A stretch of DNA of 64,000 bases, taken from positions 17,772 through 81,771 of the forward strand of contig CAZZJS010000001.1 in NCBI GenBank assembly GCA_964654855.1. The letters are read 5' to 3'. The DNA is from an uncultured Rickettsiales bacterium (GTDB lineage Bacteria; Pseudomonadota; Alphaproteobacteria; Rickettsiales; JALZUV01). How positions within the stretch are numbered: the first letter of the stretch is position 1; each line of letters begins with the position of its first letter. Below the pieces are notes generated by a model. It was not told the origin of the DNA. It ran no database searches and saw only the letters and a list, made by a program, of their open reading frames with translations. Both the position numbers and the translations under genes were made by a program. Positions 7,788-30,651 of the stretch are shown in pieces.

Positions 7788-7818
7788 ATTCTTATTTTCT
7801 TACTGCTTAATAGATTGT

Positions 7819-9908: not shown

Positions 9909-12900
9909 AGGCAATCAGCTGGGTTAAGTAAGAAATATAATGTCGGCTGAGTTCTTCTATTGTTTCCGTATTGAAGCGACTATTACTGTAAGTAAAGTGC
10001 AGCTTTAGGCACTTATTGACAATCGCTGCTTCGATATAGAGTCCATAACATAGAGGATTACTCGGCGCTGATGAAACTATCCCAGCTGGTTCGCCTTGAG
10101 GAGTAATAGATAAGCCTTCAGGTAATAATGCGTCAATTTGACTCACATAGTTAAAGAAGAGTTGCGGTGTTGGGTGCTGGGTAATAGCTGAGTCTCTCGC
10201 AGTATAACGCAATAAATTGTAAGCTTCATTTCGTGCAGGAATTTGTTCGAGCTGCTGTTTGATAGCATCAACATCACCCACTTCCAGATAGGCTGGGTAG
10301 ACTGTATTCACCCATCCCACAGTACGCGATAGATTAATGCCATCAGATCCATTACGTCCATGCCCACAGAGGTTGACCAGCATTTCTGATTTGCCTGTCC
10401 ATTCTCGAATAGTCTGACTTAGGGCAGTGAGCAAAGTATCTTGAATTTGCCACCCTTTCTCTGCAGGTAAATCTTTCAGCAGCGCGCCAGTGAGAGATTC
10501 GTCCAGTGTGGTTTTATGTGTATGAGCAGAAGCTTCATCAGCTGTATCATCCACTCTATCGTAAGGTAGCTCCGGTACGGGGTGCATTTTTGCGCTACCC
10601 CAATAGGCCAGCTCTTGCGTGAAATCATCTGTTTCAATTTGCTGCCGTTGCGCTTCGGTCAATTGTTGTATTGAGGTGGTTTTAGCCGCTAATTCCATTT
10701 CTATACCCAACCGAGCGCCTTCATAGCTTTTGAGGAAGTCTTCAAAAATAAGGCGCGAAGAGACCATATCCAGCAGCAAGTGATGCGCGATAATGGCGAG
10801 TTTTCCGCTTTCCTCTCCGGTTTTAAAATGGATAATTCGCAATAATGGCGCAGTCGATAAATCGAGAGATGCTTGCTGTTTATTGATGGTCTCTACCATC
10901 TGAGGTTCTTGCTGCTCGGATGCTAGCGCCGCAATATCGTAAGTGAAGAAATAGGTCACTTGCGGTAGGGTCGAAAGGCATTCTTGCTGCCATTCTCCAT
11001 TCGCATTTTGCGTCAATCGTACCCGCAAATTATCGTGATGCATCAAGACGGTATCAAATGCGGATTTAAGCTGTTCAGGATTGGCGTTATGATCAATATC
11101 AAACCAGAAAAAACGATTCCAGTGATGAGGCTCAACCATACCATCTGCAAAGAATTTTGTTTGGCGTGGTAAGAGTGGATAAGTGCCCTCAATCGCTTCT
11201 TGCGTTGCTTCATTCGCTGCTGCAAAAGGTTGGTCTTGCGCCACGGTTGCTAATTCTGCAATGGTGCGGTGGGTGAAGAGGCTATTGGTTTCTACATAAA
11301 TCCCTTGCTCTTCGGCTGCACATACAAGCTGAATCGCCATGAGCGAGTCGCCGCCCAATTCAAAGAAGCTATCATCCACGCCAATTTTATCTGCTGGCAG
11401 GGTTAGAATCTCTGACCATAATGCGACCAGCTTTGTTTCTGTATCATTACTTGCCGCGCGATAGGCCTTGCGTTTTTGCTGTTTTTGTTCCGGTTTTGGT
11501 AGGGCGTTCCGGTTGATTTTCGCACTGGCGAGTCGTGGGATTTCATCCGCCTCCACATAAAAAGCGGGAGCCATATAAGATGGTAAATTCGCGCAGATAT
11601 GTTTGCGTAACGTTTCTAGCTCGAAGCCTTCTTCAACAACATAATAAGCGGCGAGACGTTTATGTTCGCTACCAATATCAATCACGGCGGTATCTTTAAC
11701 ACCCGCTACTTGTGCCATAACGGCTTCAATCTCTGCCAACTCAATACGGAAGCCGCGAATCTTCACCTGACTATCGATACGCTCTAGATATTCAATTTCG
11801 CCTTGCGAATTAAAACGCGCCAGATCACCGGTTTTATAAAGCCGTGCATTCGTATCTTGCGTGAATGGATCGGCAATAAAACGTTCTGCCGTTAAGTCTG
11901 GCAGATTGACATAACCTTGTGCGACACCAATGCCGCCAATATGCAATTCGCCCGCCACACCCATGGGCATAGGGCGCAATGTTTCATCTAAAATGTAAAG
12001 CGATGTTGCACCTAATGGCCGGCCAATCGGAATAATGGAAGAAGTCGTACTATTCTCACACTTTGTGAAGGCGGAATAAATCGTGCCTTCCGTTGGGCCA
12101 TATACATTATAGAGCGTGCCAGAACATTGCTGATAATAGCGCGTAACCAGGCTTGGCGGCAAGGCTTCCCCTGCTGCAAGCATGTGTTTTAAGCTGCTTA
12201 GCTTACGGTCTTTCAAAACTGCCAGCAAGCTGGTGAGCAGTGAAGGAACCATACAGCTAGTCGTAATCTGATGGGTTTCAATCAGGTCAATCAGATAAGA
12301 CGGATCTTTATAAGATTCGCTATCGGTTAGCACCAAACTTGCCCCAGCACTTAATGGCCAGAAAATCTCCGCAACGGAGACATCAAAGGTAGTATCGGTA
12401 TTTTGCAATATTTTATCAGCTTTAGAGAGAGGGATTTCTTGCTGTAGCCACTTTAGGCGCGGCACTACATTTTCATGCGTTAGGCGTACACCTTTAGGGT
12501 TTCCGGTAGAGCCAGACGTGTAAATAAGATAAGAATCTGCATCTTGCGTTACGGAGGGTAAGTTCTTTGTAGATTGCGATTGCCAACGTTGCTCCTCTAT
12601 CAATAAAGTGGCCACCTCTTCGGCGGGGAGCTTCTCCTTCAAGTTCGTTTGCGTGATGACATGATCACATCCAGAATCTTGCAAAATATAGGCGATGCGC
12701 TTAGCCGGATAATCAGGCGAAAGTGGAACATAAGCCGCGCCGGCTTTCATAATAGCCAGCAAGCTAGTGATAAGATTTGCCCCGCGCTCTAATAGTATGG
12801 CGACTTTATCGCCTTTTTTAACGTCCTCTGCTTGAAGTTGACGCGCCAACTGATTGGCTTGCTCATTGAGTGTTTGATAGGAAAATTGTTTACCGTCTTC

Positions 12901-14439: not shown

Positions 14440-15078
14440 TTAAAAACAATCCATCTGATAGATCGCTTCTGCTCTCTTACCCGTTTGATCGCTATCAGTA
14501 AAGAGCATGAGGGCGCGTAAAGGGTAGGGTGGTCTCTCGCCAAATAGTTTGATGAGATCATTTTGCACGTTGCGTGATTCAGTCTGCCATTGCTGCAAAG
14601 GACTTTGTTTATTTTGCAGTAAGATGCGTTTTTGCGTGCCGTGACGATTTTTTGGAGTGTTAAGCACCGCCCCTATCGGATCATTTTGCGCTGCCCATAC
14701 ATAGGATAACATATGAAAATCATTTTTGAAAAAGTCAGAACCTTCATGCTCGCTATAAATTAAATGCACAGAAGCGGCGAAATCTTCATGTTCTTTGCTT
14801 TCAATATCCACTTTAGGGTGCGCCTTTAGAACCTTCCAGCGCCAGTTTAATATGCCGTCATTGAGGCATTTTTGAGGGGTCATTTTCACAAGGCCGCTTG
14901 CAGTTGCTTCACCTGTAATAGCATGAACTCTTTTTTCATCACCTTCTGATTTTAATAGGTATTGAGTGGGCTCGCTTGTGAAGGTAATGACGTCACCCAA
15001 TGGGTGCTTGGTTTGTTCGGGGCCAAAAAACGCACTCAACATGATGAATGAAGCAATTAAGAGAGAGTGTCGCCACAT
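14440..15078 (-). CDS. DUF3047-like secreted protein
   Basis: Signal-like N-terminus MWRHSLLIASFIMLSAFF. The motif LNWRWKVL...EDFAASVHLIY fits the DUF3047 pattern. The start chosen at 15078 lies 1 nt after the arsC stop. Confidence 0.5.
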   Translation of the reverse strand: MWRHSLLIASFIMLSAFFGPEQTKHPLGDVITFTSEPTQYLLKSEGDEKRVHAITGEATASGLVKMTPQKCLNDGILNWRWKVLKAHPKVDIESKEHEDFAASVHLIYSEHEGSDFFKNDFHMLSYVWAAQNDPIGAVLNTPKNRHGTQKRILLQNKQSPLQQWQTESRNVQNDLIKLFGERPPYPLRALMLFTDSDQTGKRAEAIYQMDCF

Positions 15079-15079
15079 A

Positions 15080-15550
15080 TTACAAACTTCCAATCTTCGT
15101 GAGTGCGGCTAAATGTAATCTCTCTGCTTCATCCAAATCCAGAAAGGCTAAGATTCTTTTTTCTAAAATCTTGAAAACACGTAGAAACTCCGCGTGCTTT
15201 TCTTCCTCTGTCCCTTCAAAATAGGCGGGATCTTCGACATCCCAGTGAGTTTTGAGAGCAGAGTTTAGAAAAACAGGGCAGTTTTCATTTGCGGCGGAGC
15301 CACATACCGTCACCACTAAATCAACAGGCTGGGTAATGTTATCCCACGACTTGCTGTGAAAGCCTTGCGTTGAAATTGAATTCGCTTCTAGTGTTTTTAA
15401 AGCTAATGGGTGCACCTTACCAGTCGGTTGGCTACCCGCACTAAAGGCTTTTAATGTCTTAGCGCCATGATGATTCAGCAATGCTTCTGCCATAATGCTA
15501 CGGCATGAATTACCGGTGCATAAAACAAGAATAGAGAGCGGTTGATTCAT
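15080..15550 (-). CDS. arsC: Arsenate reductase, LMW-PTP/thioredoxin-coupled type
   Basis: P-loop CTGNSCRS plus the downstream Cys pair CGSAANENCP reproduce the Cys10/Cys82/Cys89 triad of pI258-type ArsC. A DP motif is also present. Confidence 0.85.
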   Translation of the reverse strand: MNQPLSILVLCTGNSCRSIMAEALLNHHGAKTLKAFSAGSQPTGKVHPLALKTLEANSISTQGFHSKSWDNITQPVDLVVTVCGSAANENCPVFLNSALKTHWDVEDPAYFEGTEEEKHAEFLRVFKILEKRILAFLDLDEAERLHLAALTKIGSL

Positions 15551-15552
15551 TA

Positions 15553-16281
15553 TTACTTAGAATTGAGCTTCCAATTATATTTCAAATAGCCATCTACTTC
15601 AGCATCAGCAGGGACATTTGCATTATATTGACGTAAGAAAGCGACAAGCTCTTTCTCATTACCGAAATCTTCATCGAACCAGTCAAAGATTTTAGACAGT
15701 TTGATATCCTTACCTGTTAGCACCATGCCTTTAGTGGTGTCTTTCAGCAAGAGTTCGGTTTGCTCTTTTAACTGCGATTCCAGCTTATCGGCGCTGTAAG
15801 CTTCGGCACGCAAGTCAGGGCACGAAAGAGACGCACAGTTAATCGCCATATGGATGCGTGGTTCATTCATTTTACGCAAAATTTTATGTTCAATTGCATC
15901 AAGCGTGTATTCTTTGCCATGGAGCGCCCATTTAAACTTTTTCCAGGGATTTTTTAAAACACTCCCAAGATTGCGGATACTATCGGTTTCTTTCTCACGC
16001 GTGATAAGATCAATCGTAAGGAAATTATAAGCATTCATCCAATAGACAAGTTTCTCGCTGCGAGAGGCTGGCACTTTTAAAGTTTGCAGTGCGCTCAGTG
16101 CTTTATTGTGGCGAGCATCATTGCCCCATGCTTGGTAATTTACCAAATTGGCGTTGATACTTTGCTTCTTTCCGGTACTGACATAGTCTTTCAATAAACC
16201 ATCATAAAGCGTTGCAAAATTCTCCGCGGCGTTAGCTGGCAGAGAGAATAGAAGAAAAATAATAAATAAAAATTGTTTCAT
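15553..16281 (-). CDS. DUF547 domain protein (secreted)
   Basis: Signal peptide. Characteristic DUF547 motifs YWMNAYNFLTI and HMAINCASLSCPDL are present. Confidence 0.75.
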   Translation of the reverse strand: MKQFLFIIFLLFSLPANAAENFATLYDGLLKDYVSTGKKQSINANLVNYQAWGNDARHNKALSALQTLKVPASRSEKLVYWMNAYNFLTIDLITREKETDSIRNLGSVLKNPWKKFKWALHGKEYTLDAIEHKILRKMNEPRIHMAINCASLSCPDLRAEAYSADKLESQLKEQTELLLKDTTKGMVLTGKDIKLSKIFDWFDEDFGNEKELVAFLRQYNANVPADAEVDGYLKYNWKLNSK

Positions 16282-16359
16282 GCTCTATCATTCGTTGGTA
16301 ACGAGAAGAACATTACAAGTTTTTGTAATATTTTGAAAGTGGAGAACGAAGCAGCTGGT

Positions 16360-17052
16360 ATGAAACAAAATATTCTTAAAATTGGGTTGGTGCTCGTTGC
16401 GTTAGCAGCGATTATTGGCTTTTTCGCATTTGATTTGCATCAGCATTTTACATTGGAAAATATTAAAGCACAGCGTGAGGGGTGGGGAGCTTTTTACCAA
16501 GAGCATACGTTACTAACCCTCGCTATTTTTGGAGCGATATATGTGACGGTTACGGCTCTATCGTTACCTGCAGCGAGTATTTTAACATTGCTCGCAGGGG
16601 CGTTATTCGGCTTTATCACAGGTTTGATTATGGTGAGCTTTGCAAGCTCGATTGGCGCTACACTTGCTTTTTTAATGGCACGGTTCGTTCTGCGTGATTC
16701 TATCCAGAGTAAATACGGAAAGTATCTCACCAAAATTAATGACGGATTTGAAAAAGAAGGTGCGTTCTATCTATTCGCTTTACGTTTAGTGCCCGCGATG
16801 CCGTTTTTCGTGGTGAATATTTTGATGGGGCTATTGCCAATTAAAACCTTCACTTTTTATTGGGTAAGCCAAATAGGCATGCTCGCAGGTACGGCGGTTT
16901 ATGTTTATGCAGGTACCGAGTTAGGGAAAATTGAAAGCTTGGCCGATATTGCCTCTCCCACTCTAATTGCTGCTTTTATCGCATTGGGAGTTTTCCCTAT
17001 CATCGCAAAGAAACTCCTCGGATTATTACGAAAAGGAAAAACAGATGCCTAA
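16360..17052 (+). CDS. TVP38/TMEM64 (DedA-related) family membrane protein
   Basis: Polytopic membrane protein with the family motif region FGAIYVTVTALSLPAASILTLLAGALFG. The ATG at 16360 is chosen over the longer ORF. The 3' end overlaps the next gene by 8 nt. Confidence 0.85.
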   Translation: MKQNILKIGLVLVALAAIIGFFAFDLHQHFTLENIKAQREGWGAFYQEHTLLTLAIFGAIYVTVTALSLPAASILTLLAGALFGFITGLIMVSFASSIGATLAFLMARFVLRDSIQSKYGKYLTKINDGFEKEGAFYLFALRLVPAMPFFVVNILMGLLPIKTFTFYWVSQIGMLAGTAVYVYAGTELGKIESLADIASPTLIAAFIALGVFPIIAKKLLGLLRKGKTDA

Positions 17053-18472
17053 ATATGATTATAATTTAATTGCCATTGGTGCCGGTGCTGGTGGATTAGT
17101 TTCCACTTATATTGGCGCAGCGGTGAAAGCCAAAGTTGCCCTGATTGAACGCCATAAAATGGGCGGTGATTGCCTCAATACGGGCTGTGTGCCAAGTAAG
17201 GCTTTGCTGCGTTCAGCTAAGATGATGTCTTATGCCAAGCGTGCTGAAGAGTTTGGCTTTAAAAGCACAAAGATCGAGTTTGATTTTGCGGATGTTATGG
17301 CGCGTGTGCAAGATGTCGTTAAAGCGATTGAGCCGCATGATTCGGTTGAGCGTTACGAAGGCCTCGGCGTGAATTGTTATACGGGTGAAGCCAAAATTCT
17401 CGACCCGCATACGGTGGAGGTAAATGGTGAGAAACTTACCGCGCGCGCGATTATTGTTTCTACAGGCGCGCGTCCACTCGTGCCGCCTATTCCGGGTTTA
17501 GCCGATATTGATTATCTCACGAGTGATAATTTATGGAACTTGAAGAAACTTCCTAAGCGCTTGACTGTATTAGGCGGTGGGCCTATCGGCTCCGAAATGG
17601 CGCAAGCTTTTGCACGTTTAGGATCGCGGGTGACAATTGTTGAAATGGCACCGCAAATTTTGATTCGAGAAGATGAAGAGGTGATTGATCTGGCCGTTGA
17701 GCAATTTGAAGCGGATGGCATTACTATTTTGACAGGCCATAAGGCCAAAGCCTTTGAAAAAGGTAAAGTCATTTGTGAGCATGAAGGCAAAGATGTTGAA
17801 GTCGAGTTTGACGAAGTGATTGTAGCGCTTGGTCGTCGCGCCAATGTCAAAGGTTTCGGGCTAGAAGAACTGGGCGTGAAGCTGAGTGATCGCGGTACAA
17901 TTGAAGCGAACCCTTATTTGCAAACCAACATCCCAAGCATTTATGTGTGCGGCGATGTGACAGGCCCTTATCAATTCACCCATACGGCAGCGCATCAAGC
18001 ATGGTATGCTAGCGTAAATGCCTTATTCTCTCCATTTAAGAAGTTCAAAGTTGATTACTCGGTCATCCCTTGGGCGACTTTTACTGACCCTGAAGTGGCG
18101 CGTGTTGGTTTAAATGAGAAAGATGCTAAAGCGCAGAACATTCCTTATGAGGTGACAAAATATGGCATTGATGATTTAGACCGTGCCATTGCCGATAGTA
18201 GCGCTCATGGTTTCGTCAAAGTGTTGACCGTTCCGGGTAAAGATAAGATTCTCGGTGCGACCATCGTTGGGCATCATGCGGGTGATATTATCGCCGAATA
18301 TGTGATGGCGATGAAACATGGGCTTGGCATGAATAAGATTCTCGGTACGATTCATATTTATCCGACCCTTGCCGAAGCCAATAAGTTCGCCGCGGGCGAA
18401 TGGAAAAAAGCTAATGCACCAGAATGGTTGTTAGGATGGGTTGAAAAATTCCATGCATGGCGCCGTAAATAG
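17045..18472 (+). CDS. FAD-dependent pyridine nucleotide-disulfide oxidoreductase (mercuric reductase / lipoamide dehydrogenase-like)
   Basis: GxGxxG motif IAIGAGAGG, redox-active disulfide GGDCLNTGCVPSK, a second NAD(P) fold VLGGGPIGSE, and a C-terminal His...Glu dimer-interface motif HIYPTLAE. Confidence 0.9.
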   Translation: MPKYDYNLIAIGAGAGGLVSTYIGAAVKAKVALIERHKMGGDCLNTGCVPSKALLRSAKMMSYAKRAEEFGFKSTKIEFDFADVMARVQDVVKAIEPHDSVERYEGLGVNCYTGEAKILDPHTVEVNGEKLTARAIIVSTGARPLVPPIPGLADIDYLTSDNLWNLKKLPKRLTVLGGGPIGSEMAQAFARLGSRVTIVEMAPQILIREDEEVIDLAVEQFEADGITILTGHKAKAFEKGKVICEHEGKDVEVEFDEVIVALGRRANVKGFGLEELGVKLSDRGTIEANPYLQTNIPSIYVCGDVTGPYQFTHTAAHQAWYASVNALFSPFKKFKVDYSVIPWATFTDPEVARVGLNEKDAKAQNIPYEVTKYGIDDLDRAIADSSAHGFVKVLTVPGKDKILGATIVGHHAGDIIAEYVMAMKHGLGMNKILGTIHIYPTLAEANKFAAGEWKKANAPEWLLGWVEKFHAWRRK

Positions 18473-18496
18473 AAAAGATCAAACAAAAGGAATATC

Positions 18497-19528
18497 ATGA
18501 CCATTACCCAAAGCGTGAAAGATTATTACGGCGAAGTGCTGAAAACGAAGGAAGATTTACTCACCAGCGCGTGTTGCCCTATTGATGCGATGCCCGCACA
18601 TTTGCGCCCGCTCATGGCTAATATTCATGAAGAAGTGCAAGCAAAATTTTATGGTTGTGGCTCGCCTATCCCGCATGCCTTGGAGGGGCTGACGGTGCTT
18701 GATCTTGGCTGCGGCACAGGGCGCGATGTTTACACCCTTTCGCAATGCGTCGGCGAATCGGGCAAAGTCATCGGCATTGATATGACGGAAAACCAGCTGG
18801 AAGTCGCACGTCGCACCCTAGGCTGGCATATGGATAAATTTGGCTATAAAAAGCCCAATGTCGAGTTCCATCAGGGCTATATCGAACAACTTAGCATGAT
18901 TGAAGATAGCTCGATTGATGTGGTGACTTCCAATTGCGTCATTAATCTTTCGCCCGATAAACCTGCCGTGTTTAAAGAAATTTTCCGCATCTTAAAACCG
19001 GGTGGAGAGCTGTACTTCTCGGATGTCTTTACTGGTCGCCGCGTGCCAGAGGATTTAACCCATGATCCCGTTCTATTTGGCGAATGCCTAAGCGGGGCGC
19101 TCTATGTTGAAGATTTCCGCCGCATGTTGCGTGAAGTCGGTTGTGTCGATTATCGTGTTGTCAGCAGCGGGCCAATTGAATTGCACGATCCAGAAGTGGT
19201 GCGTAAAGCGGGGATGATTGATTTTTACTCCCTTACCATCCGCAGTTTCAAATGCGATTTTGAAGATATTTGCGAAGATTACGGCCAAGTGGCTTATTAC
19301 CAAGGAACCATAGAAAATGCGCCGCATGCCTTCATGCTAGACGATCATCATCTGTTCAAAACAGGCCAACCCGTACCCGTTTGCGGCAATACCGCGCAGA
19401 TGTTGAGCGAGACGCATTACGGTAAACATTTCCGTGTCGAGGGAGATCGTTCCACTCATTACGGTGCGTTTGATTGCTCGCCTGCATTAGCCGGAACCGA
19501 AGCTGCAACTAGCGGAGCTTGCTGCTAA
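18497..19528 (+). CDS. arsM: Arsenite S-adenosylmethionine methyltransferase
   Basis: SAM motif VLDLGCGTGRDV. Conserved ArsM cysteines occur in their typical contexts (TSACCP, FYGCGSP, SNCVINLS, FGECLSGA). The tail is Cys-rich (SGACC). Confidence 0.85.
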   Translation: MTITQSVKDYYGEVLKTKEDLLTSACCPIDAMPAHLRPLMANIHEEVQAKFYGCGSPIPHALEGLTVLDLGCGTGRDVYTLSQCVGESGKVIGIDMTENQLEVARRTLGWHMDKFGYKKPNVEFHQGYIEQLSMIEDSSIDVVTSNCVINLSPDKPAVFKEIFRILKPGGELYFSDVFTGRRVPEDLTHDPVLFGECLSGALYVEDFRRMLREVGCVDYRVVSSGPIELHDPEVVRKAGMIDFYSLTIRSFKCDFEDICEDYGQVAYYQGTIENAPHAFMLDDHHLFKTGQPVPVCGNTAQMLSETHYGKHFRVEGDRSTHYGAFDCSPALAGTEAATSGACC

Positions 19529-19561
19529 TGTTCGTTAGGGTTCTACACAATTAGGTGACTG

Positions 19562-20350
19562 ATGTTGGAGAATGAATCCGCTCTACGCCTAACTGTTTTT
19601 CTGATCGTGCTCATATTAATATGTGCATGGGAGTGGAAATATCCGAAACGTCACTTAGTATTGGCGCGCACTAAGCGCTGGCCGCGCAATTTGGCTATGG
19701 TCGGGATGGTAACGCTGCTGTTGCGCGTGCTGATTCCCTTCACCGGCGTGATGGCCGCACTGTTTGCTCAACAGCATCAAATAGGATTATTCCACTGGTT
19801 AAAATTGCCTGAGTTTCTGGAGATTCTTCTATCAATTATTTTGCTAGATTTTCTGATTTACGCACAACATTTTGCGTTACACTATATTCCGTTCTTCTGG
19901 CGTTTTCATAAGGTGCATCATACGGATCAAGACGTGGATGTAACGACTGCCCTTCGTTTTCATCCGATTGAGATTATCTTTTCGCTCTTTATCAAGGCGG
20001 CAGCGGTGATTGCTTTAGGGGTACCGCTTATCGCCGTGATTTTGTTTGAAATGATTCTCAGTAGTATGGCAATGTTTAATCATGGCAATATCGCTTTGCC
20101 GCATAAATGGGATAAATGGCTACGCAAAGTAATTGTCACACCCGATATGCATCGCGTACATCATTCCATCTATAGCCGCGAAACCAATAGCAATTTCGGT
20201 TTCAACCTCGCTCTATGGGATAGATTATTTAGAACCTATCAAGCGCAACCTAAAGACGGGCATTTAAAAATGTTCATTGGTTTGAATGAATATCGTCATC
20301 AAGATGGCATTAGTTTTCTGGGCTTGCTATCTATGCCATTCAAGAAATAA
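19562..20350 (+). CDS. Fatty acid hydroxylase / sterol desaturase family membrane di-iron enzyme
   Basis: Three His boxes (HFALH, HKVHH, HRVHH) in a polytopic membrane protein. Confidence 0.85.
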   Translation: MLENESALRLTVFLIVLILICAWEWKYPKRHLVLARTKRWPRNLAMVGMVTLLLRVLIPFTGVMAALFAQQHQIGLFHWLKLPEFLEILLSIILLDFLIYAQHFALHYIPFFWRFHKVHHTDQDVDVTTALRFHPIEIIFSLFIKAAAVIALGVPLIAVILFEMILSSMAMFNHGNIALPHKWDKWLRKVIVTPDMHRVHHSIYSRETNSNFGFNLALWDRLFRTYQAQPKDGHLKMFIGLNEYRHQDGISFLGLLSMPFKK

Positions 20351-20363
20351 GGAGAGTATCACC

Positions 20364-21209
20364 ATGTTAGCCATTATCGGAGGCACGGGCCTTTACCAAA
20401 TTGAAGGATTGCAGGTGCAAGATGAAGTGGTGGTTGAAACGCCATTTGGCGAGCCATCAGCGCCGATTTTCAAAGCCACTTATGGTGAGCATGAGCTGCT
20501 GTTTTTACCCCGCCATGGACAGAATCATCAGTTTTTGCCACATGAGGTGAATTACCGCGCGAATATCTTTGCGCTCAAAGAACTGGGCGCAAAACAATTG
20601 CTCGGCTTTTCGGCGGTAGGTAGTTTGCGTGAAGAAATTCATCCGGGTGATTTTGCCATTCCCTCGCAATATTTCGACTTTGTTAAAGGCAATCGCGAAC
20701 GAACTTTCTTTGGAAATGGTATTGCGGCGCATGTTTCTACGGCAGAACCGGTTTGCGCGAATCTGACTGCATGGGTGGCTGCTAAAGCCGCGCAGATGCA
20801 GCTAAAAATTCATACTGACAAAACCTATGCAGGGGTGGATGGTCCAAGACTTGGCACTAAAGCGGAGAGTCATTTTCTACGCGACGCAGGGTGCGATTTA
20901 GTGGGTATGACCAATGTGCCAGAAGCTTTCCTCGCGCGTGAGGCACAGCTTTGCTATGCGACTATCGGCATCGCAACCGATTATGATTGCTGGATGGATG
21001 ATCCTGCTCAGCATGTAAGTGTGGCTGATGTTATTGCCCGCTATGGCGGAAGCCTCGCCAAAGCGAAGGAGCTTTTACTGGCGTTGTTAGAAACTCCGTT
21101 GCCTGCCATTGATGCGGATTATCGCGAGAGTCTCAAAACATCGCTCCTGACTCCGCTTGGGGCTATCCCCGCTGATAAGCGCGAATGGTTGTCGGTATTG
21201 CAAGCTTAA
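20364..21209 (+). CDS. mtnP: S-methyl-5'-thioadenosine phosphorylase family (purine nucleoside phosphorylase fold)
   Basis: MLAIIGGTGLY..., FLPRHGQNHQFLPHEVNYRANIFALKELG and VGMTNVPE match MTAP. AGGAGA RBS lies upstream at 20350-20355. The physiological substrate here may differ (see findings). Confidence 0.8.
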   Translation: MLAIIGGTGLYQIEGLQVQDEVVVETPFGEPSAPIFKATYGEHELLFLPRHGQNHQFLPHEVNYRANIFALKELGAKQLLGFSAVGSLREEIHPGDFAIPSQYFDFVKGNRERTFFGNGIAAHVSTAEPVCANLTAWVAAKAAQMQLKIHTDKTYAGVDGPRLGTKAESHFLRDAGCDLVGMTNVPEAFLAREAQLCYATIGIATDYDCWMDDPAQHVSVADVIARYGGSLAKAKELLLALLETPLPAIDADYRESLKTSLLTPLGAIPADKREWLSVLQA

Positions 21210-21796
21210 TGGCTTCTATTTCCGTCATCATTCCTCTCGCGCCAGGTGAGCCAAGGCCAGAGGTGTTGCTCGCTTGTTTGCCGCAAGAGGCTGAAATTAT
21301 CCTCTCGCAAGAAGGGGGGCGAGCGTCAAGCCTCAATCAAGGCGCGGCCAAAGCGAGTGGGGAGTATCTATGGTTCCTTCATGCGGATTCAGAGTTGACC
21401 GATGATGGCTGGCATAAGCTGCAGATTGCCATCAAACAAGTGCCGAACGCATTGCATTATTTTGATTTAGCCTTTGCGGGTGGTTCATTTTTTATGCGAT
21501 TAAATGCATGGGGTGCTAATTTTCGTTCGCGTATTTTGGGATGCCCCTTTGGCGATCAAGGCTTTTGCCTTAACCGTTCTGTCTTTGAAGAGCTAGGCGG
21601 ATATCCTAAAGATGTCGCTTATGGCGAAGATCATCTCTTTGTGTGGAAAGCGCGTAAAGCGGGGGTGCAGTTGAACCCTATTGGCGCAACATTAACCACC
21701 AGCCCGCGCAAATATGAAAAATACGGTTGGCTGAGAGTCACGATTCTGCATCAATATTTATGGCTTAAACAAGTGGTCGCGGCGCAATGGAAATAG
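21209..21796 (+). CDS. GT-A fold glycosyltransferase of the 'rSAM/selenodomain-associated transferase 2' type
   Basis: N-terminus SVIIPLAPGE and FLHADSEL (DxD-like), about 195 aa. The start overlaps the MTAP stop (TAATG). It shares gene context with the radical SAM/Cys-rich protein. Confidence 0.7.
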   Translation: MASISVIIPLAPGEPRPEVLLACLPQEAEIILSQEGGRASSLNQGAAKASGEYLWFLHADSELTDDGWHKLQIAIKQVPNALHYFDLAFAGGSFFMRLNAWGANFRSRILGCPFGDQGFCLNRSVFEELGGYPKDVAYGEDHLFVWKARKAGVQLNPIGATLTTSPRKYEKYGWLRVTILHQYLWLKQVVAAQWK

Positions 21797-22449
21797 GCCT
21801 CGGAATATTTGCGAAAACGGCCAGTTTATCGCTCGTTAAAACACGGTTGGCCGCAACGATTGGTGAAGCGAAAGCGCATGAGTTTTATGTGCTCAGCTTG
21901 AAAGCGATTGAACAAATGGCGCAGTCGCTACCTGCCTCTATCCACCCTCATTGGGCGATAGCAGAAGAAGAAGGCTTGTCCGCCGAGCAATGGCAAAATC
22001 TATCTGCATTTTGGACAGGAGAAGGTGATTTAGGCCAGCGTTTGCATCAAGTTTATTTGCGTTTGCAGCAGCAATATGGTGCCGCCATGCTGATTGGCAC
22101 CGATAGTCCGCAGCTGACTCCTACATTATTGGTTGAGGCGCAAAAGCGGCTAGCGGAAAGCCCGCAATCTATTGTTATCTCGCCTTGCGATGATGGCGGC
22201 TTTACCCTCTTCGCCGCAGCCACTGAGATTCCCGCGACTATTTGGCAATCGGTCGAATATAGTCAATCCACCACCTTACAGCAGCTCGCCAATGCATTGG
22301 AAAGTAAGGGAAAGAGTATTTCCTATCTTCCCTCGCAGCAGGATGTCGATGTCGCAGCGGATTTAGAAAAATTACAGCGCCACCTTGCAGAACAGGATGG
22401 AATCCCTTCTGCACAACAGGCGCTATTAGCGTGGTTGAAGAAGCTTTAA
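21787..22449 (+). CDS. DUF2064 / 'rSAM/selenodomain-associated transferase 1' type protein
   Basis: The N-terminal GIFAKTASLSLVKTRLA matches the FAK-x-P-x-x-G-x-VKTRL signature of DUF2064. It overlaps the previous gene by 10 nt. Confidence 0.7.
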   Translation: MEIGLGIFAKTASLSLVKTRLAATIGEAKAHEFYVLSLKAIEQMAQSLPASIHPHWAIAEEEGLSAEQWQNLSAFWTGEGDLGQRLHQVYLRLQQQYGAAMLIGTDSPQLTPTLLVEAQKRLAESPQSIVISPCDDGGFTLFAAATEIPATIWQSVEYSQSTTLQQLANALESKGKSISYLPSQQDVDVAADLEKLQRHLAEQDGIPSAQQALLAWLKKL

Positions 22450-23378
22450 GCCGAACAACTTCCGCCGCCAAGTACGCAGAATTTGGCGCAATGCGGGTGG
22501 TTGAGATAAACTGAATCACTTGCCTCTTTTAAGGTGTTTCCCATCTCAAATTCATCCTCATAGGGCAAGAGAGTACAGGCCAGAACCGTTGGCTTATCGG
22601 CTCCTTTGCGTTTTACGACCATGCGTGAATTTGCGCACATCATATTGTCAGGATGGACGTTTAGAATATCCCAGCAATCGGTCGTAATTTCGGGTACTTC
22701 GGCCTTTTCATCCATTTCGGGAAATAGCATCAGTTCTTTCGGGCTGTTTGCATCGACTTTAACGCCTAGCTCTTTAAATAATGCTGCAAACCCAGCGCGC
22801 AATTCGGCTTCATCTTCGCCCCAGCGGGTGCGCCCTGCAATATCAATCGGGAAGCCTTGGGATGCCAGCCATTGTAGGCCTTTGACCATTGGCTGCCATG
22901 TGCCTAGGCCGCGTTCTTCCTCATGCATGGCTTGCGTGAAATGATCGACAGAAATACGCAGCACCATCTGCTCGCCGTAACGTGCTAGTAAACCCAACAG
23001 CGCCTCTTGCTTATGCTGCATAGGTTTCATCGCATTGGTCAGTACTAGCAATTTAAACCCGCGCTCTAAAATAAGCTCCATCATGGGTAGAATATAGGGG
23101 TTCATAAAGGGCTCGCCGCCCGTAATAGCAATTTCGCGCGTGCCGAGATTATCGCGTTGAATCTCATCCAGATACTCTCGCGTTTCTGCTAATGTCAGAT
23201 AGACTAGCCGATCATTCTTGGGGCTGGATTCAATATAGCAATTTTCGCATTCAATATTGCAAAGCGTGCCCGTATTGAGCCACAAGGTCTCCAGTTTTGG
23301 CAAATCCACCCAAGCGCGCTGCTCGCCTTTGGCGGTCACTTTCGGATTCAAAAATTTTTCTAAATTGGGTTGGCTCAT
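22446..23378 (-). CDS. arsS: Radical SAM / Cys-rich domain protein (arsenosugar biosynthesis ArsS type)
   Basis: CNIECENCY radical-SAM cluster motif near the N-terminus. The C-terminal Cys-rich tail is HCAKFCVLGGGSCSA. The gene is clustered with arsM. Confidence 0.8.
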   Translation of the reverse strand: MSQPNLEKFLNPKVTAKGEQRAWVDLPKLETLWLNTGTLCNIECENCYIESSPKNDRLVYLTLAETREYLDEIQRDNLGTREIAITGGEPFMNPYILPMMELILERGFKLLVLTNAMKPMQHKQEALLGLLARYGEQMVLRISVDHFTQAMHEEERGLGTWQPMVKGLQWLASQGFPIDIAGRTRWGEDEAELRAGFAALFKELGVKVDANSPKELMLFPEMDEKAEVPEITTDCWDILNVHPDNMMCANSRMVVKRKGADKPTVLACTLLPYEDEFEMGNTLKEASDSVYLNHPHCAKFCVLGGGSCSA

Positions 23379-23397
23379 TTTCGCGTTCCTTTATTGC

Positions 23398-24792
23398 TTA
23401 AAACTTCGTGACAAGTTGGCTGAAACCATAAAGCGTTCGGCTTTTCTCAGGCCCGTTAGGAACATTATCGAGAAAATTACCATGAAATAAAGCAGAACCA
23501 CCAATATCCCACCGAACCCTTTTAGGTACGATCCAATGGCGCACTCTAGCATCAATCGTATGGCCAATGAAACGCCCAGAATTGCCCGTCACATCTCGCA
23601 AATTGGCAGCATCTAGCTCATCTGTATCACTATCCAAATAGGCGACCTGATAAGTGATAAAGCCATCGGTACGCTTATTCGGCTGAAACTCAAAGTCGAT
23701 GCCAGGAAGGATGAGGTTGTTTCTGACCAAAGGCCCGTGAATAGAGGTGAAACCAACATCGCCACGTCTTGCACCAAAGAGGCGATCATAGGAGCCGAAA
23801 CGATTATCATTGGGGTTATCATCACCCGTCGCATAATCAAATTCAAAGGCTAAACGAGGCGTCCACGGGGCATCAAATTGATATCCAATTTCTGCATGAA
23901 GTGTTTGCGCCCTTACGTTAATGTCATTGGTATCTGTGGAGGCTGTTGTGGCGCGTCTTTCACCAAATTGATAGCCATATTCGACTTCATAATCCCATTC
24001 GGTGGTTTTAGGCTTTTTGAGTGTACGAAAGCCGAGCGTATAGAGCTCGCGATTGGCGGTATTACGATCATTCGTATCTCTTTCATGCAGGCCATAGGTA
24101 AATAGTTCTAGCTTCGTATCGGGAATGAGGTTCTTTTCATCCGTATAAACCACTCCCCAAAAACCTCGCGAATCATCTCTCTTGTCGAAAGCTTGTCGAT
24201 TATCGGATAAATTTTCGAAATTGCGAGGCTGCGCTCTGACAGGAACGACAAAGAAACTTTCAAATTGATTTCCACTATCAAAATGAGTGCGTAAATGCGC
24301 ACCATCATAGCTATTGATCGTGTTGCGATAGCCATTTCGTTCAATAAAGCGTTCACTGCCGATATCAACTGTTTGGCGGCCTAGTTTTAGCTTTGTGTTT
24401 GTATGTTCGCCAAAAGTTTTACCCAAATGGAAATCGAGATTGGCATTGATAAATTCAAAGCTATTCACAAAGCTGGTTGAAAGAGGTGTTCCTGCATCAT
24501 CCAAATAGCCGCGAGAATCTTGGAGCTCTAAATTCACATCAAACGGTTGAAGTTTGGCTTTTGCGCGAATCAGCGTGCGAATGGCAAGCAACTGGTCGCT
24601 TCCGTTACGCCCAGCACGAAACTGGCCGTCCAATGATTCATAGCGCACCCGGTTTTCACCCTCAAGATGCAGCCAATCGGGAGGGTCCAACGCACTATCG
24701 AGCGTCGGGAGTTTAAATTTTTCATCCGCAGCTTGAGCCTGCATGGCTAGCAGGCTCAGCGCGGTTATCATAAAAACGAAAAATTTATGCGG
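23398..24792 (-). CDS. Outer-membrane beta-barrel, alginate-export (AlgE)-like porin
   Basis: Signal peptide ...LLAMQAQA and N-terminal GENRVRYE motif. The sequence shows an alternating beta-strand pattern and ends in a C-terminal Phe (QLVTKF). The start is uncertain (24792 or 24771). Confidence 0.55.
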   Translation of the reverse strand, partial: PHKFFVFMITALSLLAMQAQAADEKFKLPTLDSALDPPDWLHLEGENRVRYESLDGQFRAGRNGSDQLLAIRTLIRAKAKLQPFDVNLELQDSRGYLDDAGTPLSTSFVNSFEFINANLDFHLGKTFGEHTNTKLKLGRQTVDIGSERFIERNGYRNTINSYDGAHLRTHFDSGNQFESFFVVPVRAQPRNFENLSDNRQAFDKRDDSRGFWGVVYTDEKNLIPDTKLELFTYGLHERDTNDRNTANRELYTLGFRTLKKPKTTEWDYEVEYGYQFGERRATTASTDTNDINVRAQTLHAEIGYQFDAPWTPRLAFEFDYATGDDNPNDNRFGSYDRLFGARRGDVGFTSIHGPLVRNNLILPGIDFEFQPNKRTDGFITYQVAYLDSDTDELDAANLRDVTGNSGRFIGHTIDARVRHWIVPKRVRWDIGGSALFHGNFLDNVPNGPEKSRTLYGFSQLVTKF

Positions 24793-25351
24793 CATTCGCA
24801 GAATCAGCACTCCAACGGTTAGGTAAGAACGCCTCATCTAAAGGCGTTTGTACGATGTGATTAGTGTAGTTTGACATGGTTTTCAATGCCGTTGCTAACA
24901 CAATTTCCAATACATGCTGCTGCGTATAACCCGCACCAAAGAAAGCCTGCATTTGCTCTGCACTTGGTGTACCGCGCGTCTCATTTACGATTTTTGCGAA
25001 TTCACGCAATGCTTCGAATTTTGCATTTGGTAGTGCTGTTTGGTTACGCAAAGCATCCACCACTTCCGCCTCTACGCCTTTCATTTGCGAAATCGTCGTA
25101 TGCGCTGCCATACAATAAGTGCAGCCATTTTGAATATTATTGGTCATTAATACAATCTGGCGCTCAGTCTCGGTAAAGCTGGTTTTATCAACAAAACCAG
25201 AGAGGGCTAAATAACCTTCTAATAAAGCCGGAGCTTCTGCCATTTTGGCGAAAATATTGGGCACAAACCCCATAGAGCCTTGAACATTCTCTAATGTTGC
25301 TTTTGCCTCTTGTGGTGCTGTCTCTACTGTGTGCGTGGTGAATGATGTCAT
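24785..25351 (-). CDS. Carboxymuconolactone decarboxylase / AhpD-like family protein
   Basis: AhpD-core CxxC motif in NGCTYCMAAHT, about 188 aa. Confidence 0.85.
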   Translation of the reverse strand: MTSFTTHTVETAPQEAKATLENVQGSMGFVPNIFAKMAEAPALLEGYLALSGFVDKTSFTETERQIVLMTNNIQNGCTYCMAAHTTISQMKGVEAEVVDALRNQTALPNAKFEALREFAKIVNETRGTPSAEQMQAFFGAGYTQQHVLEIVLATALKTMSNYTNHIVQTPLDEAFLPNRWSADSANAA

Positions 25352-25512: not shown

Positions 25513-27537
25513 TTATTTTAAAACAGATAAAATGCTGGAACGATGATCAGTCCAAAGGGGTGAGTCAGGCGCTGCTTTGAGAGACGTAAAATTCATTTTA
25601 GTAAATTGTTCATCCCAGTGCGAATTAGGCTTTGCCATAAAGATCCACTCTGCGGTGCCATCATAAGAGAATTCAGGGTTATATTCAAAGCGCTTATGGT
25701 AAACGGCCATATTATATTCTTTTGCTAAACGAGCGAGTATGGGGCGCAAATCTGTATGGCGCGCGATAATATTAAATGCGAGTAGACCGTTTTGAGGGTT
25801 TAGCTTGCTAAGATAAATGCCGAGTGCCTCTTTGGTGAGTAAGTGCATAGGGATGGCACTTGAATTAAAAGCATCCAGCACAATTAAATTATATTTCTCA
25901 TTAGATTGCTTCCTGATTTCCAAACGACCATCTCCAAGAATGAGGTTTGGTTTGCCAGGGCAATCACGCAAATAGGTGAAATAGTCAGAGTTTTGTGCAA
26001 TCTCTGCGACGAGCGGATCAATCTCGTAAAAATCGATAATTTGATTTTCTGAAGCCATGCAGGTAAGCATTCCCGTGCCTAAACCAATGACTGCAAAAGG
26101 TTGTTCAAAGAAGCCAGAAGGTGTGTTTTCCATCAAGTTTCGGAGGTTGTGGTTGAGGTATAATTCGTGCCCAGGGAAAGTTGGTTGGTATCCTTGCTTA
26201 GTGCTGCCAATTTCGAGAATGCGCACAAAGAAGGGGGAGGCCTTTTCAGCGACTTTTTTAACACCAAAGAAGTTTCTCGCTTGATATTGCGCTTGGTAAT
26301 CATCGCTTTCTGTCCAAGTGATGATCAGTGCTAAAACAATGCATGAGGTGCTGCCAGCAAAGGCTGCTTTGCGTAGGGTGCTAAATTGGTGATGGTTCTT
26401 GAACCAATAGGTAAATGGAACGCTGAGCGAGAGTATTAGAATGATCGGGTATTCATAAATATCGTTGAATAAATAAGGCGCAATATTGGCGAATAAAGCT
26501 CCCAGAGCACCGCCTAGTGCAAGCCAAAAGTAATAGGAAGTAAGAGCCTCTGGTGCAGGTTTCTCTTTTGCTATTTGGCCATGACAACTAAGTGAAATGA
26601 TGAAGAGACATAGTAGGTGCAGTGCCACTTGCTCCATATAATAATTCTTGGCATAAAAATGCGAAAGAAATGCATAGACGTACCCTGCGAGTAAAAAGAC
26701 GAGAGCACAGATAGGTAAATGAAGGTGTTGTGCGAGGCTGATCCAGCGAGCTGCATTATTCGAAAAGGCGATAATAAAACTCAACAAATACAGTGCTAAT
26801 GGCAAAACCCATAAGAGCGGAATGGTCGCGATATCTGTCGTGATGAAGAGTGTTGTGCTTAAAAAGAGAGCGGATGGAATAAATCCCAAAAACAGGATGC
26901 GGAGGATAGACGAAGAGTTGAGAGCAAAGCTTGTATGTAAGCTCTCTGTTTGCGTTCTGATATGACGTAACTTTAAAGTGGTAAGGGTTAGTAATAGTAT
27001 CAATCCATAGAATAAATAACTCCAAGAAAGCATCTGTTCTTTTAGGGGGAAGAGCCATTCAATAAGAAGAGGATAGCTGAGCAACCCTGCTAAACTTCCA
27101 GCATTGCTAATCGAAAATAGAAAGTAGGGCGAGGTGCCGTTTGCTTGATAGTACCAGCGTTGCAAAAGTGTGGCGTTAGAAGCAAGTAGAAAATAGGGCA
27201 GGCCAACAGTGAATAAAAGGGTAACTACTATCCAATATTCTGGAATTGATTGAGGTAATTGCCCACTATATTGCAGCGATAATGGCAGCGTGAAGATAAG
27301 GGCAAGAAACAATAAGCCTAAATGAAGTTGGCTTTGCCGTTTTGCGGTTAAATAGAGGCTGCTAACGGATGCATAAGCATAGCCTGCCAATAAGAGTATT
27401 TGGAAAAATAATATAGAGGTAACCCATATAGCGGGTGCGCCGCCTACTTGTGGCAGTAAAGATTTCACCAATACCGGCTGAATAATAAAAAGCAGAAACG
27501 AGCCTAAAAATATGGCGAGTGAGAAGAGAGGTGCCAT
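25513..27537 (-). CDS. Fused polytopic membrane (MFS-like) / spermidine synthase-like protein
   Basis: About 400 aa of TM helices are followed by a class-I methyltransferase/aminopropyltransferase-like domain (VIGLGTGMLT, LIVLDAFNSSAIPMHLLTKEA). Confidence 0.75.
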   Translation of the reverse strand: MAPLFSLAIFLGSFLLFIIQPVLVKSLLPQVGGAPAIWVTSILFFQILLLAGYAYASVSSLYLTAKRQSQLHLGLLFLALIFTLPLSLQYSGQLPQSIPEYWIVVTLLFTVGLPYFLLASNATLLQRWYYQANGTSPYFLFSISNAGSLAGLLSYPLLIEWLFPLKEQMLSWSYLFYGLILLLTLTTLKLRHIRTQTESLHTSFALNSSSILRILFLGFIPSALFLSTTLFITTDIATIPLLWVLPLALYLLSFIIAFSNNAARWISLAQHLHLPICALVFLLAGYVYAFLSHFYAKNYYMEQVALHLLCLFIISLSCHGQIAKEKPAPEALTSYYFWLALGGALGALFANIAPYLFNDIYEYPIILILSLSVPFTYWFKNHHQFSTLRKAAFAGSTSCIVLALIITWTESDDYQAQYQARNFFGVKKVAEKASPFFVRILEIGSTKQGYQPTFPGHELYLNHNLRNLMENTPSGFFEQPFAVIGLGTGMLTCMASENQIIDFYEIDPLVAEIAQNSDYFTYLRDCPGKPNLILGDGRLEIRKQSNEKYNLIVLDAFNSSAIPMHLLTKEALGIYLSKLNPQNGLLAFNIIARHTDLRPILARLAKEYNMAVYHKRFEYNPEFSYDGTAEWIFMAKPNSHWDEQFTKMNFTSLKAAPDSPLWTDHRSSILSVLK

Positions 27538-30650: not shown

Positions 30651-30651
30651 G

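Follow-up and report, generated by a model that had tools for sequence, protein, structure and literature searches.

Gene organization of the locus

We analysed a stretch of 64,000 nucleotides (the window) from an uncultured Rickettsiales bacterium (assembly GCA_964654855.1, contig CAZZJS010000001.1). The region 14440-25351 of this window carries genes for an arsenate reductase-like protein, an ArsM-type methyltransferase and an enzyme of the radical S-adenosylmethionine (SAM) type, together with an accessory set of the kind that surrounds ArsS, the radical SAM enzyme of arsenosugar synthesis. On the basis of sequence comparisons, we regard this region as probably a variant of the ArsS-type supercluster, in which ArsS has been replaced by an unnamed radical SAM family in an arsenosugar/arsenolipid pathway.

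The open reading frames (ORFs) described in an earlier note on this DNA were all found in place by the ORF listing and the hidden Markov model (HMM) scans of the window, which also agree with its layout of three transcription units, a divergent pair of which the second converges with the third (Table 1). The first unit runs on the minus strand through DUF547 and the LMWP-type ArsC, both of which the note had listed, and ends in a DUF3047 gene that it had missed. The second unit (16360-22449, plus strand) comprises seven genes whose ends overlap or are separated by gaps of 13-33 nt, which suggests a single operon. The third, read on the minus strand from 25351 down to 22446, encodes an AhpD-like protein, a porin and the radical SAM enzyme. 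This clustering is far beyond chance, and the gene set was met again in at least nine independent contigs.

Units 2 and 3 converge so closely that the 3' ends of the radical SAM and DUF2064 genes share 4 nt (22446-22449). In most lineages (the window and the loci L001, L084, L086, L088, L140 and L145) the radical SAM gene has a convergent overlap of 4 to 62 nt with DUF2064, or with the glycosyltransferase gene in the case of L145. Terminators therefore have no room between these genes, and the overlap may bring about transcriptional interference or antisense coupling of the two units. The divergent spacer between units 1 and 2 contains a perfect 7-bp inverted repeat, ATTACAA-n4-TTGTAAT (spacer gttt, 16312-16329), a possible operator. 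No regulator gene was found among the annotated genes of the window (ORFs up to 36775), the promoter and terminator scan gave fewer sites than shuffled sequence, with no enrichment, and Rfam returned no matches over the entire window.

Table 1. Genes and features of the arsenic-related cluster, in order of position in the window
Feature	Position	Strand	Evidence and remarks
DUF3047 protein, hydrophobic N-terminus	14440-15093	-	PF11249, 109.6 bits; likely start ATG 15078
LMWP-family arsenate reductase-like protein (thioredoxin-type ArsC)	15080-15550	-	PF01451, 75 bits
DUF547 protein, signal peptide-like N-terminus	15553-16281	-	PF04784, 86.5 bits; divergent from main operon
Divergent spacer DUF547/TVP38	16282-16359		78 bp; between units 1 and 2
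TVP38/VTT (DedA-superfamily) membrane protein	16360-17052	+	PF09335, 76 bits; first operon gene; mechanical ORF begins TTG 16273, likely start ATG 16360
Class-I FAD/NAD(P)H disulfide oxidoreductase	17045-18472	+	Pyr_redox_2 and Pyr_redox_dim; NF004991, 502.7 (cutoff 620)
ArsM-type As(III) SAM methyltransferase, C-terminal GACC	18497-19528	+	PDB matches, Cys motifs
Membrane di-iron fatty-acid hydroxylase/sterol desaturase family	19562-20350	+	PF04116, 100 bits; OlsE model, 87.9 (cutoff 475)
MTAP-family purine nucleoside phosphorylase	20364-21209	+	TIGR01694, 274.9 bits (reaches cutoff 274.85)
Small GT-A (family 2) glycosyltransferase, TIGR04283-like	21185-21796	+	PF00535; likely start ATG 21209
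DUF2064/TIGR04282-like protein, CofC-/MobA-like nucleotide-diphospho-sugar transferase fold	21787-22449	+	PF09837; last operon gene
Radical SAM enzyme, unnamed family, in ArsS position	22446-23378	-	Family tests, ArsS comparisons, cysteines, model, synteny
Alginate_exp outer-membrane beta-barrel	23398-24837	-	PF13372, 168 bits; immediately upstream of radical SAM gene
AhpD/CMD-family protein, CTYC (CxxC) motif	24785-25351	-	PF02627; TIGR01926, 66 (cutoff 81.8); first gene of unit 3

A radical SAM enzyme in the place of ArsS

The gene at 22446-23378 had been named arsS in the earlier note, a name that our family tests do not support. The protein reaches 63.1 bits against the ArsS equivalog TIGR04167, whose cutoff is 300, and the match joins residues 28-177 to positions 6-149 of the 303 in the model. 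DUF3641 (PF12345) is present in 120 of 120 ArsS homologues among the matches listed and scores 171 bits in the Pseudanabaena ArsS and 192 bits in that of Acinetobacter portensis; in the window protein it gave no match even at E<=10. A BLASTP comparison with the Pseudanabaena ArsS showed 27% identity over residues 28-176 only, and hhalign, applied to 55 family members against 21 ArsS sequences, could align 142 columns of the core (20% identity) but no others. The CX3CX2C motif (C40/C44/C47) is invariant, a feature generic to the radical SAM superfamily. Since the gene is not arsS, the experimentally supported ArsM plus ArsS core that had been claimed for this cluster is not present, and the locus holds a candidate analogue only.

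Apart from this core, two features recall ArsS: the position of the gene, which sits where ArsS sits in related clusters, and a Gly-rich tail with three cysteines. The window protein ends in HCAKFCVLGGGSCSA and the ArsS consensus in HCYGCTAGQGSSCGG; the two tails, HCxxxC...GGGSCS and HCxxC..GxGSSC respectively, are alike in composition and unlike in spacing. Common descent may have left this likeness behind, or it may have arisen by convergence.

Where the sources name the relatives of this protein at all, the NCBI Prokaryotic Genome Annotation Pipeline (PGAP) and NCBI call them just 'radical SAM protein'. More than 8000 word-sharing matches were found at E<=1e-5, the best 120 of them being 65-85% identical, and an exhaustive search of clusters at 50% identity gave 235 representatives at E<=1e-30. 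Among the named relatives, metagenome-assembled genomes (MAGs) labelled Rickettsiales are the nearest, and of the most closely related contigs two stem from marine metagenomes. By these comparisons, we assign the gene to a large, conserved and unnamed family distinct from ArsS. The highest-scoring curated model for the window enzyme is that of the Rv1681 family (NF049973), which it matches in the core only and far under the cutoff of 380. A Rv1681-like member is found on a mycobacterial plasmid, among PhnD-like, CcdA, thioredoxin and CMD genes that resemble the surroundings of ArsS.

Further conserved cysteines lie beyond C40/C44/C47: C235, C248, C268, C297 and C301, with C308 nearly invariant. 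The AlphaFold model (mean predicted local distance difference test score, pLDDT, 85.5) finds its best fold matches in BlsE, SuiB, SkfB, DesII and anSME, at template modelling (TM) scores of 0.55-0.60, and in this model the C-terminal half appears SPASM/twitch-like. Like those enzymes, the window enzyme has a Cys-rich C-terminal extension, which could hold auxiliary Fe-S clusters; it differs from them in its identity of 12-16% and in its spacing, C-x12-C ... C ... C-x3-C-x6-C, which departs from the canonical SPASM motif. Their substrates are peptides or sugars. The fold search returned generic SPASM/twitch enzymes and no close structure, and the PDB sequence search with the radical SAM protein gave a marginal match to YydG only.

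Some additional observations were made around relatives of the enzyme. On a Roseomonas plasmid (L090), the enzyme and a PhnD-type ABC transporter are followed by a separate metallophosphoesterase gene, and a second radical SAM gene adjoins the enzyme. A match on a Marinobacter plasmid (32% identity) lies in an unannotated stretch with uninformative neighbours. In the Mycolicibacterium vanbaalenii plasmid locus L139, a Rv1681-like radical SAM gene stands beside PhnD-like, CcdA, thioredoxin-like, CMD, deiodinase-like and glutaredoxin genes; a further radical SAM gene paired with a methyltransferase gene occurs there as well. In A. portensis and Burkholderia glumae, too, CcdA and thioredoxin genes lie on the flanks of ArsS, and the surroundings in L139 may reflect a broader redox or metalloid island theme.

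Comparison with canonical ArsS clusters

The window meets the canonical clusters in its accessory genes. Compared with the A. portensis plasmid pJNE5-X3_NDM-1, which carries a PGAP-annotated ArsS, the identities are 59% for the FAD reductase, 57% for the VTT protein, 49% for the ArsM-like methyltransferase (annotated there as 'methyltransferase domain-containing protein'), 48% for the fatty-acid hydroxylase, 47% for MTAP, 38% for DUF547, 35% for the family 2 glycosyltransferase (GT2) and 29% for DUF2064, and only 21%, in the core only, for the radical SAM protein. Because the accessory identities range from 29 to 59% against 21% for the radical SAM protein, the accessory set is judged to match gene for gene, with the radical SAM gene alone exchanged.

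Gene order varies among these clusters. In A. portensis, ArsS is followed by a TVP38/FAD-reductase fusion, DUF547, TIGR04283, TIGR04282, the methyltransferase and PHO4; the other strand carries mtnP and a sterol desaturase. The Burkholderia glumae replicon bglu_2p has ArsS, MTAP, TIGR04283, TIGR04282, a TVP38/FAD fusion, DoxX and a CMD-family gene, and a like core surrounds ArsS in Marinobacterium and Microbulbifer. Taken together, the ArsS clusters of heterotrophic Proteobacteria in RefSeq share with the window TVP38, the FAD reductase, DUF547, TIGR04283, TIGR04282, the ArsM-like gene, MTAP, the sterol-desaturase family and CMD. They differ from it in three respects: theirs have the canonical ArsS (Radical_SAM plus DUF3641) whereas the window has the substitute family; several of theirs have TVP38 and the FAD reductase in fused form, where the window has separate genes; and the TIGR04282-like and TIGR04283-like proteins of the window fall just under the curated cutoffs.

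The likeness to the cyanobacterial ArsM plus ArsS pathway (Synechocystis and others) is looser. Common to both are an ArsM-type gene near a radical SAM gene and, on the Pseudanabaena plasmid, an adjacent TVP38 and flavoprotein; on that plasmid, ArsR and Pst genes precede TVP38, a 'mercuric reductase', ArsM, a second TVP38 and ArsS. In contrast, the radical SAM enzyme of the window is of another family, its ArsM is nearer to algal ArsM structures and shares only 29% identity with the arsenosugar-type ArsM of cyanobacteria, and the window has in addition MTAP, GT2, DUF2064, the hydroxylase, DUF547 and ArsC.

The window combines a radical SAM gene with TVP38, FAD disulfide reductase, TIGR04283-like and TIGR04282-like genes, the composition of an extended ArsS-type cluster, and the description of the locus as an extended organoarsenical-type cluster is sustained; its accessory set is nearly the same as in RefSeq ArsS clusters. 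It had also been proposed that the steps downstream of ArsS have no assigned genes. This is correct for experiments: in the literature searched, we met no experiment on a step later than ArsS, no paper naming DUF2064 and none combining arsenosugar, glycosyltransferase and arsM. It does not hold for databases: TIGR04282 and TIGR04283 carry the name 'arsenosugar biosynthesis glycosyltransferase' in RefSeq/NCBIfam, and plasmid annotations show the extended set around canonical ArsS. At the level of database annotation the extended cluster is a known one, with two of its genes named by RefSeq for arsenosugar synthesis. The novelty lies in the unnamed radical SAM family that replaces ArsS, a replacement for which conserved synteny, the lack of any locus with both types among those compared and a gene fusion argue.

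Genomic context of the substitute family

We compared 135 loci with the substitute enzyme and five ArsS loci. ArsS was found in none of the 135 substitute loci, the substitute in none of the five ArsS loci, and no ArsS gene was found in the 64-kb window. DUF2064 and GT2 are present in all 11 loci of at least 66% identity with enough flank. The whole cluster of the window, including DUF547-LMWPc-DUF3047, is repeated in L084 (83% identity), and L001 has the radical SAM gene with the purine nucleoside phosphorylase (PNP), GT2 and DUF2064 only.

The arrangement varies from lineage to lineage. The Zetaproteobacteria MAG locus L086 has an ArsB/CitMHS transporter and then the radical SAM gene convergent with DUF2064, a glycosyltransferase (GT), a methyltransferase, the FAD reductase, a VTT-DUF547 fusion and PHO4. 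In L088 (Micavibrio) and L140, the radical SAM gene converges with DUF2064, GT, PNP and methyltransferase genes, while L141 is a co-directional rSAM-PNP-GT-DUF2064 operon. In the Bdellovibrionales MAG locus L142, Porin_O_P precedes a radical SAM gene, with which LMWPc, DUF2064, GT, PNP, PHO4 and methyltransferase genes converge. The Roseomonas plasmid, L110 and L112 (58-59% identity) have mostly kept DUF547, the FAD reductase, VTT, GT2 and DUF2064/TIGR04282, and ArsM and PNP are absent. L145, the locus of protein P0245, has a VTT/FAD fusion, two DUF547 genes, YdjM-DUF3047, a NupC-type nucleoside transporter and a CDP-alcohol phosphatidyltransferase, and further holds GT2, a GT87-like membrane protein and a fatty-acid hydroxylase.

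Genes related to arsenic recur in these surroundings. An ArsM-type gene is adjacent in at least seven lineages (the window, L084, L086, L088, L092, L140 and L142), ArsC-like genes are found in the window, L084 and L142, and PHO4, ArsB/CitMHS and Porin_O_P genes in L086 and L142. Natural DUF2064::radical-SAM fusions also exist (P0245 and P0305, from the exhaustive search). Scans of genomes and metagenomes with the radical SAM protein returned mostly relatives of 55-61% identity, largely labelled Rhodobacteraceae.

Arsenic enzymes, transferases and accessory proteins

The methyltransferase matches solved ArsM structures along its full length (residues 3-337), with 367 bits (E 7e-109) for Chlamydomonas 5EVJ and 315 bits for Cyanidioschyzon CmArsM (4FR0). 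In the alignment to these structures its cysteine motifs SACC, YGCG, SNCV and GECL are conserved, and the 5EVJ match and these motifs bear out the earlier arsM call. The curated models were not reached (193.7 against a cutoff of 263 for NF008823, and 120.8 against 400 for the arsenosugar-type NF038099). Despite these NCBIfam scores, we class the protein as a genuine ArsM-type enzyme, and it represents a distinct ArsM-like subclade. The predicted ArsC carries a CTGNSCRS P-loop (CX5R) and a VCGSAANENCP cysteine pair, as read from the translation. It scores 87.8 bits against TIGR02691 (cutoff 174.3), a family with a catalytic Cys10/Cys82/Cys89 triad; the P-loop and both downstream cysteines are present, and the best PDB matches include 8P5N (92 bits) and Bacillus subtilis ArsC 1JL3 (75 bits).

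The MTAP homologue matches 2A8Y (210 bits) and human MTAP (179 bits) in the PDB, and a PNP_UDP_1 gene is kept in L001, L084, L088, L140, L141 and L142 as well as in the ArsS clusters L136, L137 and L144. It is a candidate for the removal of adenine from a 5'-arsenical adenosine. Both MTAP and the fatty-acid hydroxylase had been assigned correctly and are conserved members of such clusters. Likewise, the two transferases have as their best matches TIGR04282 and TIGR04283, formerly 'rSAM/selenodomain-associated transferase 1 and 2', in agreement with the earlier note, with both scores just under cutoff. For GT2 the best match by far is TIGR04283, at 154.2 bits (E 3.8e-45, cutoff 182), and the protein is placed as a near-member or a sister subfamily of it. 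DUF2064 passes PF09837 (64.8 bits against 25.8) and is 1.2 bits short of TIGR04282 (132.8 against 134). Its fold assignment is supported by PDB 3CGX, a 'putative nucleotide-diphospho-sugar transferase', and by weak matches to CofC (26.6 bits) and NTP_transf_3; JGI labels its relatives 'rSAM/selenodomain-associated transferase 1'. GT2 adjoins DUF2064 in every cluster locus. We rejected a co-variation of GT2 and DUF2064 with the type of radical SAM enzyme, the copies of the substitute-type clusters L112 and L110 being 27-31% identical to those of the window and the copies of ArsS clusters 28-35%. Separately, the 302-aa protein P0472 has glutaredoxin domains fused to DUF2064, a fusion that links the DUF2064 family to thiol redox chemistry.

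The HMM scans confirm the domain assignments of TVP38, the FAD disulfide reductase, the AhpD-like protein and the porin. TVP38 corresponds in A. portensis to the VTT part of the fusion protein of the ArsS cluster. The FAD reductase has the GGDCLNTGCVPSK redox-active disulfide (CLNTGC active site) and lacks the C-terminal cysteine pair of MerA; it is 42% identical to the Pseudanabaena 'mercuric reductase' next to arsM/arsS. DUF547 occurs in both ArsS-type and substitute-type clusters. Since fusions among the genes of TVP38, the FAD reductase and DUF547 recur in other genomes, the three proteins probably act together at the membrane, where their role could be to keep arsenic trivalent or to handle a lipid-linked product. 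The order DUF547-LMWPc-DUF3047 is shared with L084, and DUF3047 is also found in the DUF2064::rSAM cluster L145.

A lipid-linked end product had been suggested from the hydroxylase and TVP38, and this hint gains some support from the CDP-alcohol phosphatidyltransferase and the GT87-like membrane protein of L145. The hydroxylase has the His boxes HFALH, HKVHH and HRVHH, and its homologues occur in L084, L136 (48% identity) and L145. In L145, the CDP-alcohol phosphatidyltransferase (7387-7998) and the NupC-type nucleoside transporter (6115-7383) lie immediately upstream of the DUF2064::rSAM fusion gene, and this pair is the most direct hint at a phospholipid head group product.

The membership of the porin in the cluster is uncertain. 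An Alginate_exp porin beside the radical SAM gene was not found in the other loci examined, and the only porin, that of L142, is of a different family (phosphate-selective Porin_O_P) in the equivalent place. Among the related loci examined, a homologue of the AhpD/CMD protein (39% identity) was found only in the B. glumae ArsS cluster, and none beside a close relative of the substitute enzyme. NCBIfam has ArsM/AhpD fusion models (NF041537), and the AhpD-like protein is a possible thiol-redox accessory.

Around the cluster, a nonribosomal peptide synthetase module (C-A-T-C, 1493 aa, 9898-14379) lies directly downstream of DUF3047 on the same, minus strand; it shows no sign of belonging to the arsenic cluster and is not present in L084. 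Just upstream of the AhpD-like gene is a 674-aa protein (25513-27537) with a weak C-terminal match to the fused MFS/spermidine synthase NF037959 (46.7 bits). Other genes of the minus strand encode a bacterial TANGO2-family protein (7819-8487), a 924-aa FG-GAP/ASPIC repeat protein (27912-30686) and, at 30652-34435, Lnt and then a Wzz/GNVR tyrosine-kinase-type polysaccharide protein.

Proposed pathway and alternative explanations

In the characterized pathway, as described in PMC12159101 and PMC13598754, ArsM supplies methylated As(III), and ArsS adenosylates dimethylarsenite, DMAs(III), to 5'-deoxy-5'-dimethylarsinoyl-adenosine (DDMAA) in a redox-neutral reaction (Xue 2019 and Cheng 2021, cited there). 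The pathway that we propose for the window has a basis of strong homology for its first two steps; steps 3 to 7 we infer. ArsC would reduce arsenate to arsenite (step 1) and ArsM would convert arsenite to dimethylarsenite (step 2). The substitute radical SAM enzyme would then cleave SAM reductively and add the 5'-deoxyadenosyl radical to trivalent arsenic (step 3), with 5'-deoxy-5'-dimethylarsinoyl-adenosine as the product, as with ArsS. The MTAP homologue may phosphorolyse this analogue of methylthioadenosine to adenine and alpha-5-deoxy-5-dimethylarsinoyl-ribose-1-phosphate (step 4), and DUF2064, with its CofC-like nucleotidyltransferase fold, could turn the sugar phosphate into a nucleoside diphosphate sugar (step 5). 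GT2 would finally place the sugar on an acceptor, either glycerol, glycerophosphate or a lipid (step 6). Because GT2 is an inverting family, the stereochemistry of GT2 and PNP would lead to a beta-riboside, as in natural arsenosugars. A membrane and thiol-redox accessory set (step 7) may consist of TVP38, the FAD disulfide reductase, DUF547, DUF3047, the di-iron hydroxylase and the AhpD-like protein.

The same logic is found in the synthesis of the bacteriohopanepolyol side chain, where radical SAM adenosylation by HpnH is followed by the removal of adenine by HpnG, of the PNP/MTAP family, to leave a ribosyl unit. That system differs in its substrate, hopene and not arsenic, and has no DUF2064/GT2 step; the window enzyme scores 25 bits against the HpnH model TIGR03470.

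Several observations weigh against this pathway. The scores of GT2, DUF2064, ArsM and ArsC are all under the curated NCBIfam cutoffs, and the uncharacterised Rv1681 family scores higher for the radical SAM enzyme (87.7 bits, residues 31-209) than ArsS does (only 63). The C-terminal half of the enzyme, which presumably binds the substrate, shows no detectable homology to the DUF3641 of ArsS, and the substrate or the reaction could therefore differ from those of ArsS. Fusions of the enzyme to an N-terminal calcineurin-like metallophosphoesterase (Metallophos::rSAM) and to a C-terminal HD_3/YfbR-like phosphohydrolase (rSAM::HD), seen in P0243, P0244, P0246 and P0272, are not accounted for by the proposed steps. 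No ArsM gene is adjacent in the substitute clusters L001, L090, L112, L141 and L145, as is also the case in some canonical ArsS clusters. In addition, about 100 relatives at 55-62% identity, mostly labelled Rhodobacteraceae (L004-L083, L093-L127), have no partner genes within 10 kb, and the Iodidimonas copy (65% identity) is likewise solitary. The solitary copies of the Rhodobacteraceae type adjoin zwf, pgl, pgi and gyrA yet keep all the conserved cysteines. Such loci are uninformative on function and weigh mildly against a universal link.

Of the alternatives, the one that survives best, which we nevertheless rate as unlikely, is that an organoarsenical is made by a different radical SAM reaction (on another arsenic substrate, forming another C-As bond, or through a lipid-linked intermediate), so that the product would not be the classical dimethylarsinoyl-riboside. 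The different C-terminal domain, with its six conserved cysteines and SPASM/twitch-like fold, speaks for it, and so do the lipid genes of related clusters (fatty-acid hydroxylase, CDP-alcohol phosphatidyltransferase and GT87-like), the second radical SAM gene in Roseomonas and the phosphoesterase fusions. Against it, the conserved MTAP is most simply explained by an adenosylated intermediate, the remaining genes match ArsS clusters, and the two radical SAM types never occurred side by side in the loci compared.

Less probable again is that the conserved core (radical SAM, PNP, GT2, DUF2064, TVP38, FAD reductase and DUF547) serves a function free of arsenic, with ArsM and ArsC as occasional neighbours; the product might be a 5-deoxyribosyl or other glycoconjugate or a membrane lipid, or the core might handle another soft metalloid or a phosphonate. 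The many family members that stand alone among housekeeping genes and the clusters that have no ArsM are consistent with this, together with the PhnD-type ABC transporter and metallophosphoesterase beside the enzyme in Roseomonas and a rhodanese gene in L112. It is opposed by the adjacency of ArsM-type genes in at least seven lineages, by the recurrence of ArsC-like and arsenate/phosphate transport genes, and by the same accessory genes around experimentally validated ArsS. PhnD-family binding proteins, moreover, include arsenite binders such as AioX.

That the gene is ArsS itself, and the validated ArsM plus ArsS core present, we hold to be very improbable: position, core identity and the cysteine tail favour it, but as a claim of family membership it is already refuted by the TIGR04167 score, the absence of DUF3641, the confinement of the profile-profile match to the core and the mere 'radical SAM protein' label that PGAP gives to a family member. 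A plain detoxification locus with unrelated neighbours, for which ArsC and ArsM would suffice as enzymes of reduction and methylation, is scarcely credible in view of the seven overlapping or nearly abutting plus-strand genes, and is already contradicted by the conserved synteny of the whole set across distant lineages and in differing orders.

With a variant of the ArsS-type supercluster as the favoured reading, a further claim can be put forward tentatively, with somewhat less than even confidence: the unnamed family may have evolved separately as a second former of the 5'-deoxyadenosyl-arsenic bond, equivalent to ArsS in function but unlike it in the half that binds the substrate.

Significance

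Arsenosugars and arsenolipids are major arsenic species of marine food webs, and experimental support extends so far to two of their biosynthetic steps, ArsM and ArsS, in cyanobacteria only. If the replacement of ArsS is as we propose, all the accessory genes of ArsS clusters can work alongside another kind of radical SAM enzyme, which would provide a natural test of the features needed for C-As bond formation. The MTAP paralogue, DUF2064 and GT2 are compact, co-transcribed candidates for the later steps, and the conserved trio would cover, in the order MTAP, DUF2064 and GT2, adenine removal, activation and glycosyl transfer. The locus and its relatives would also widen the range of likely producers to include heterotrophic bacteria of the sea. 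If the family is indeed a second former of the 5'-deoxyadenosyl-arsenic bond, many marine bacteria that do not photosynthesize would be making arsenosugars or arsenosugar lipids unrecognised, with MAG lineages labelled Rickettsiales, Micavibrio, Zetaproteobacteria and Bdellovibrionales as candidates, and carriers of the lone gene in the Roseobacter group might be producers too.

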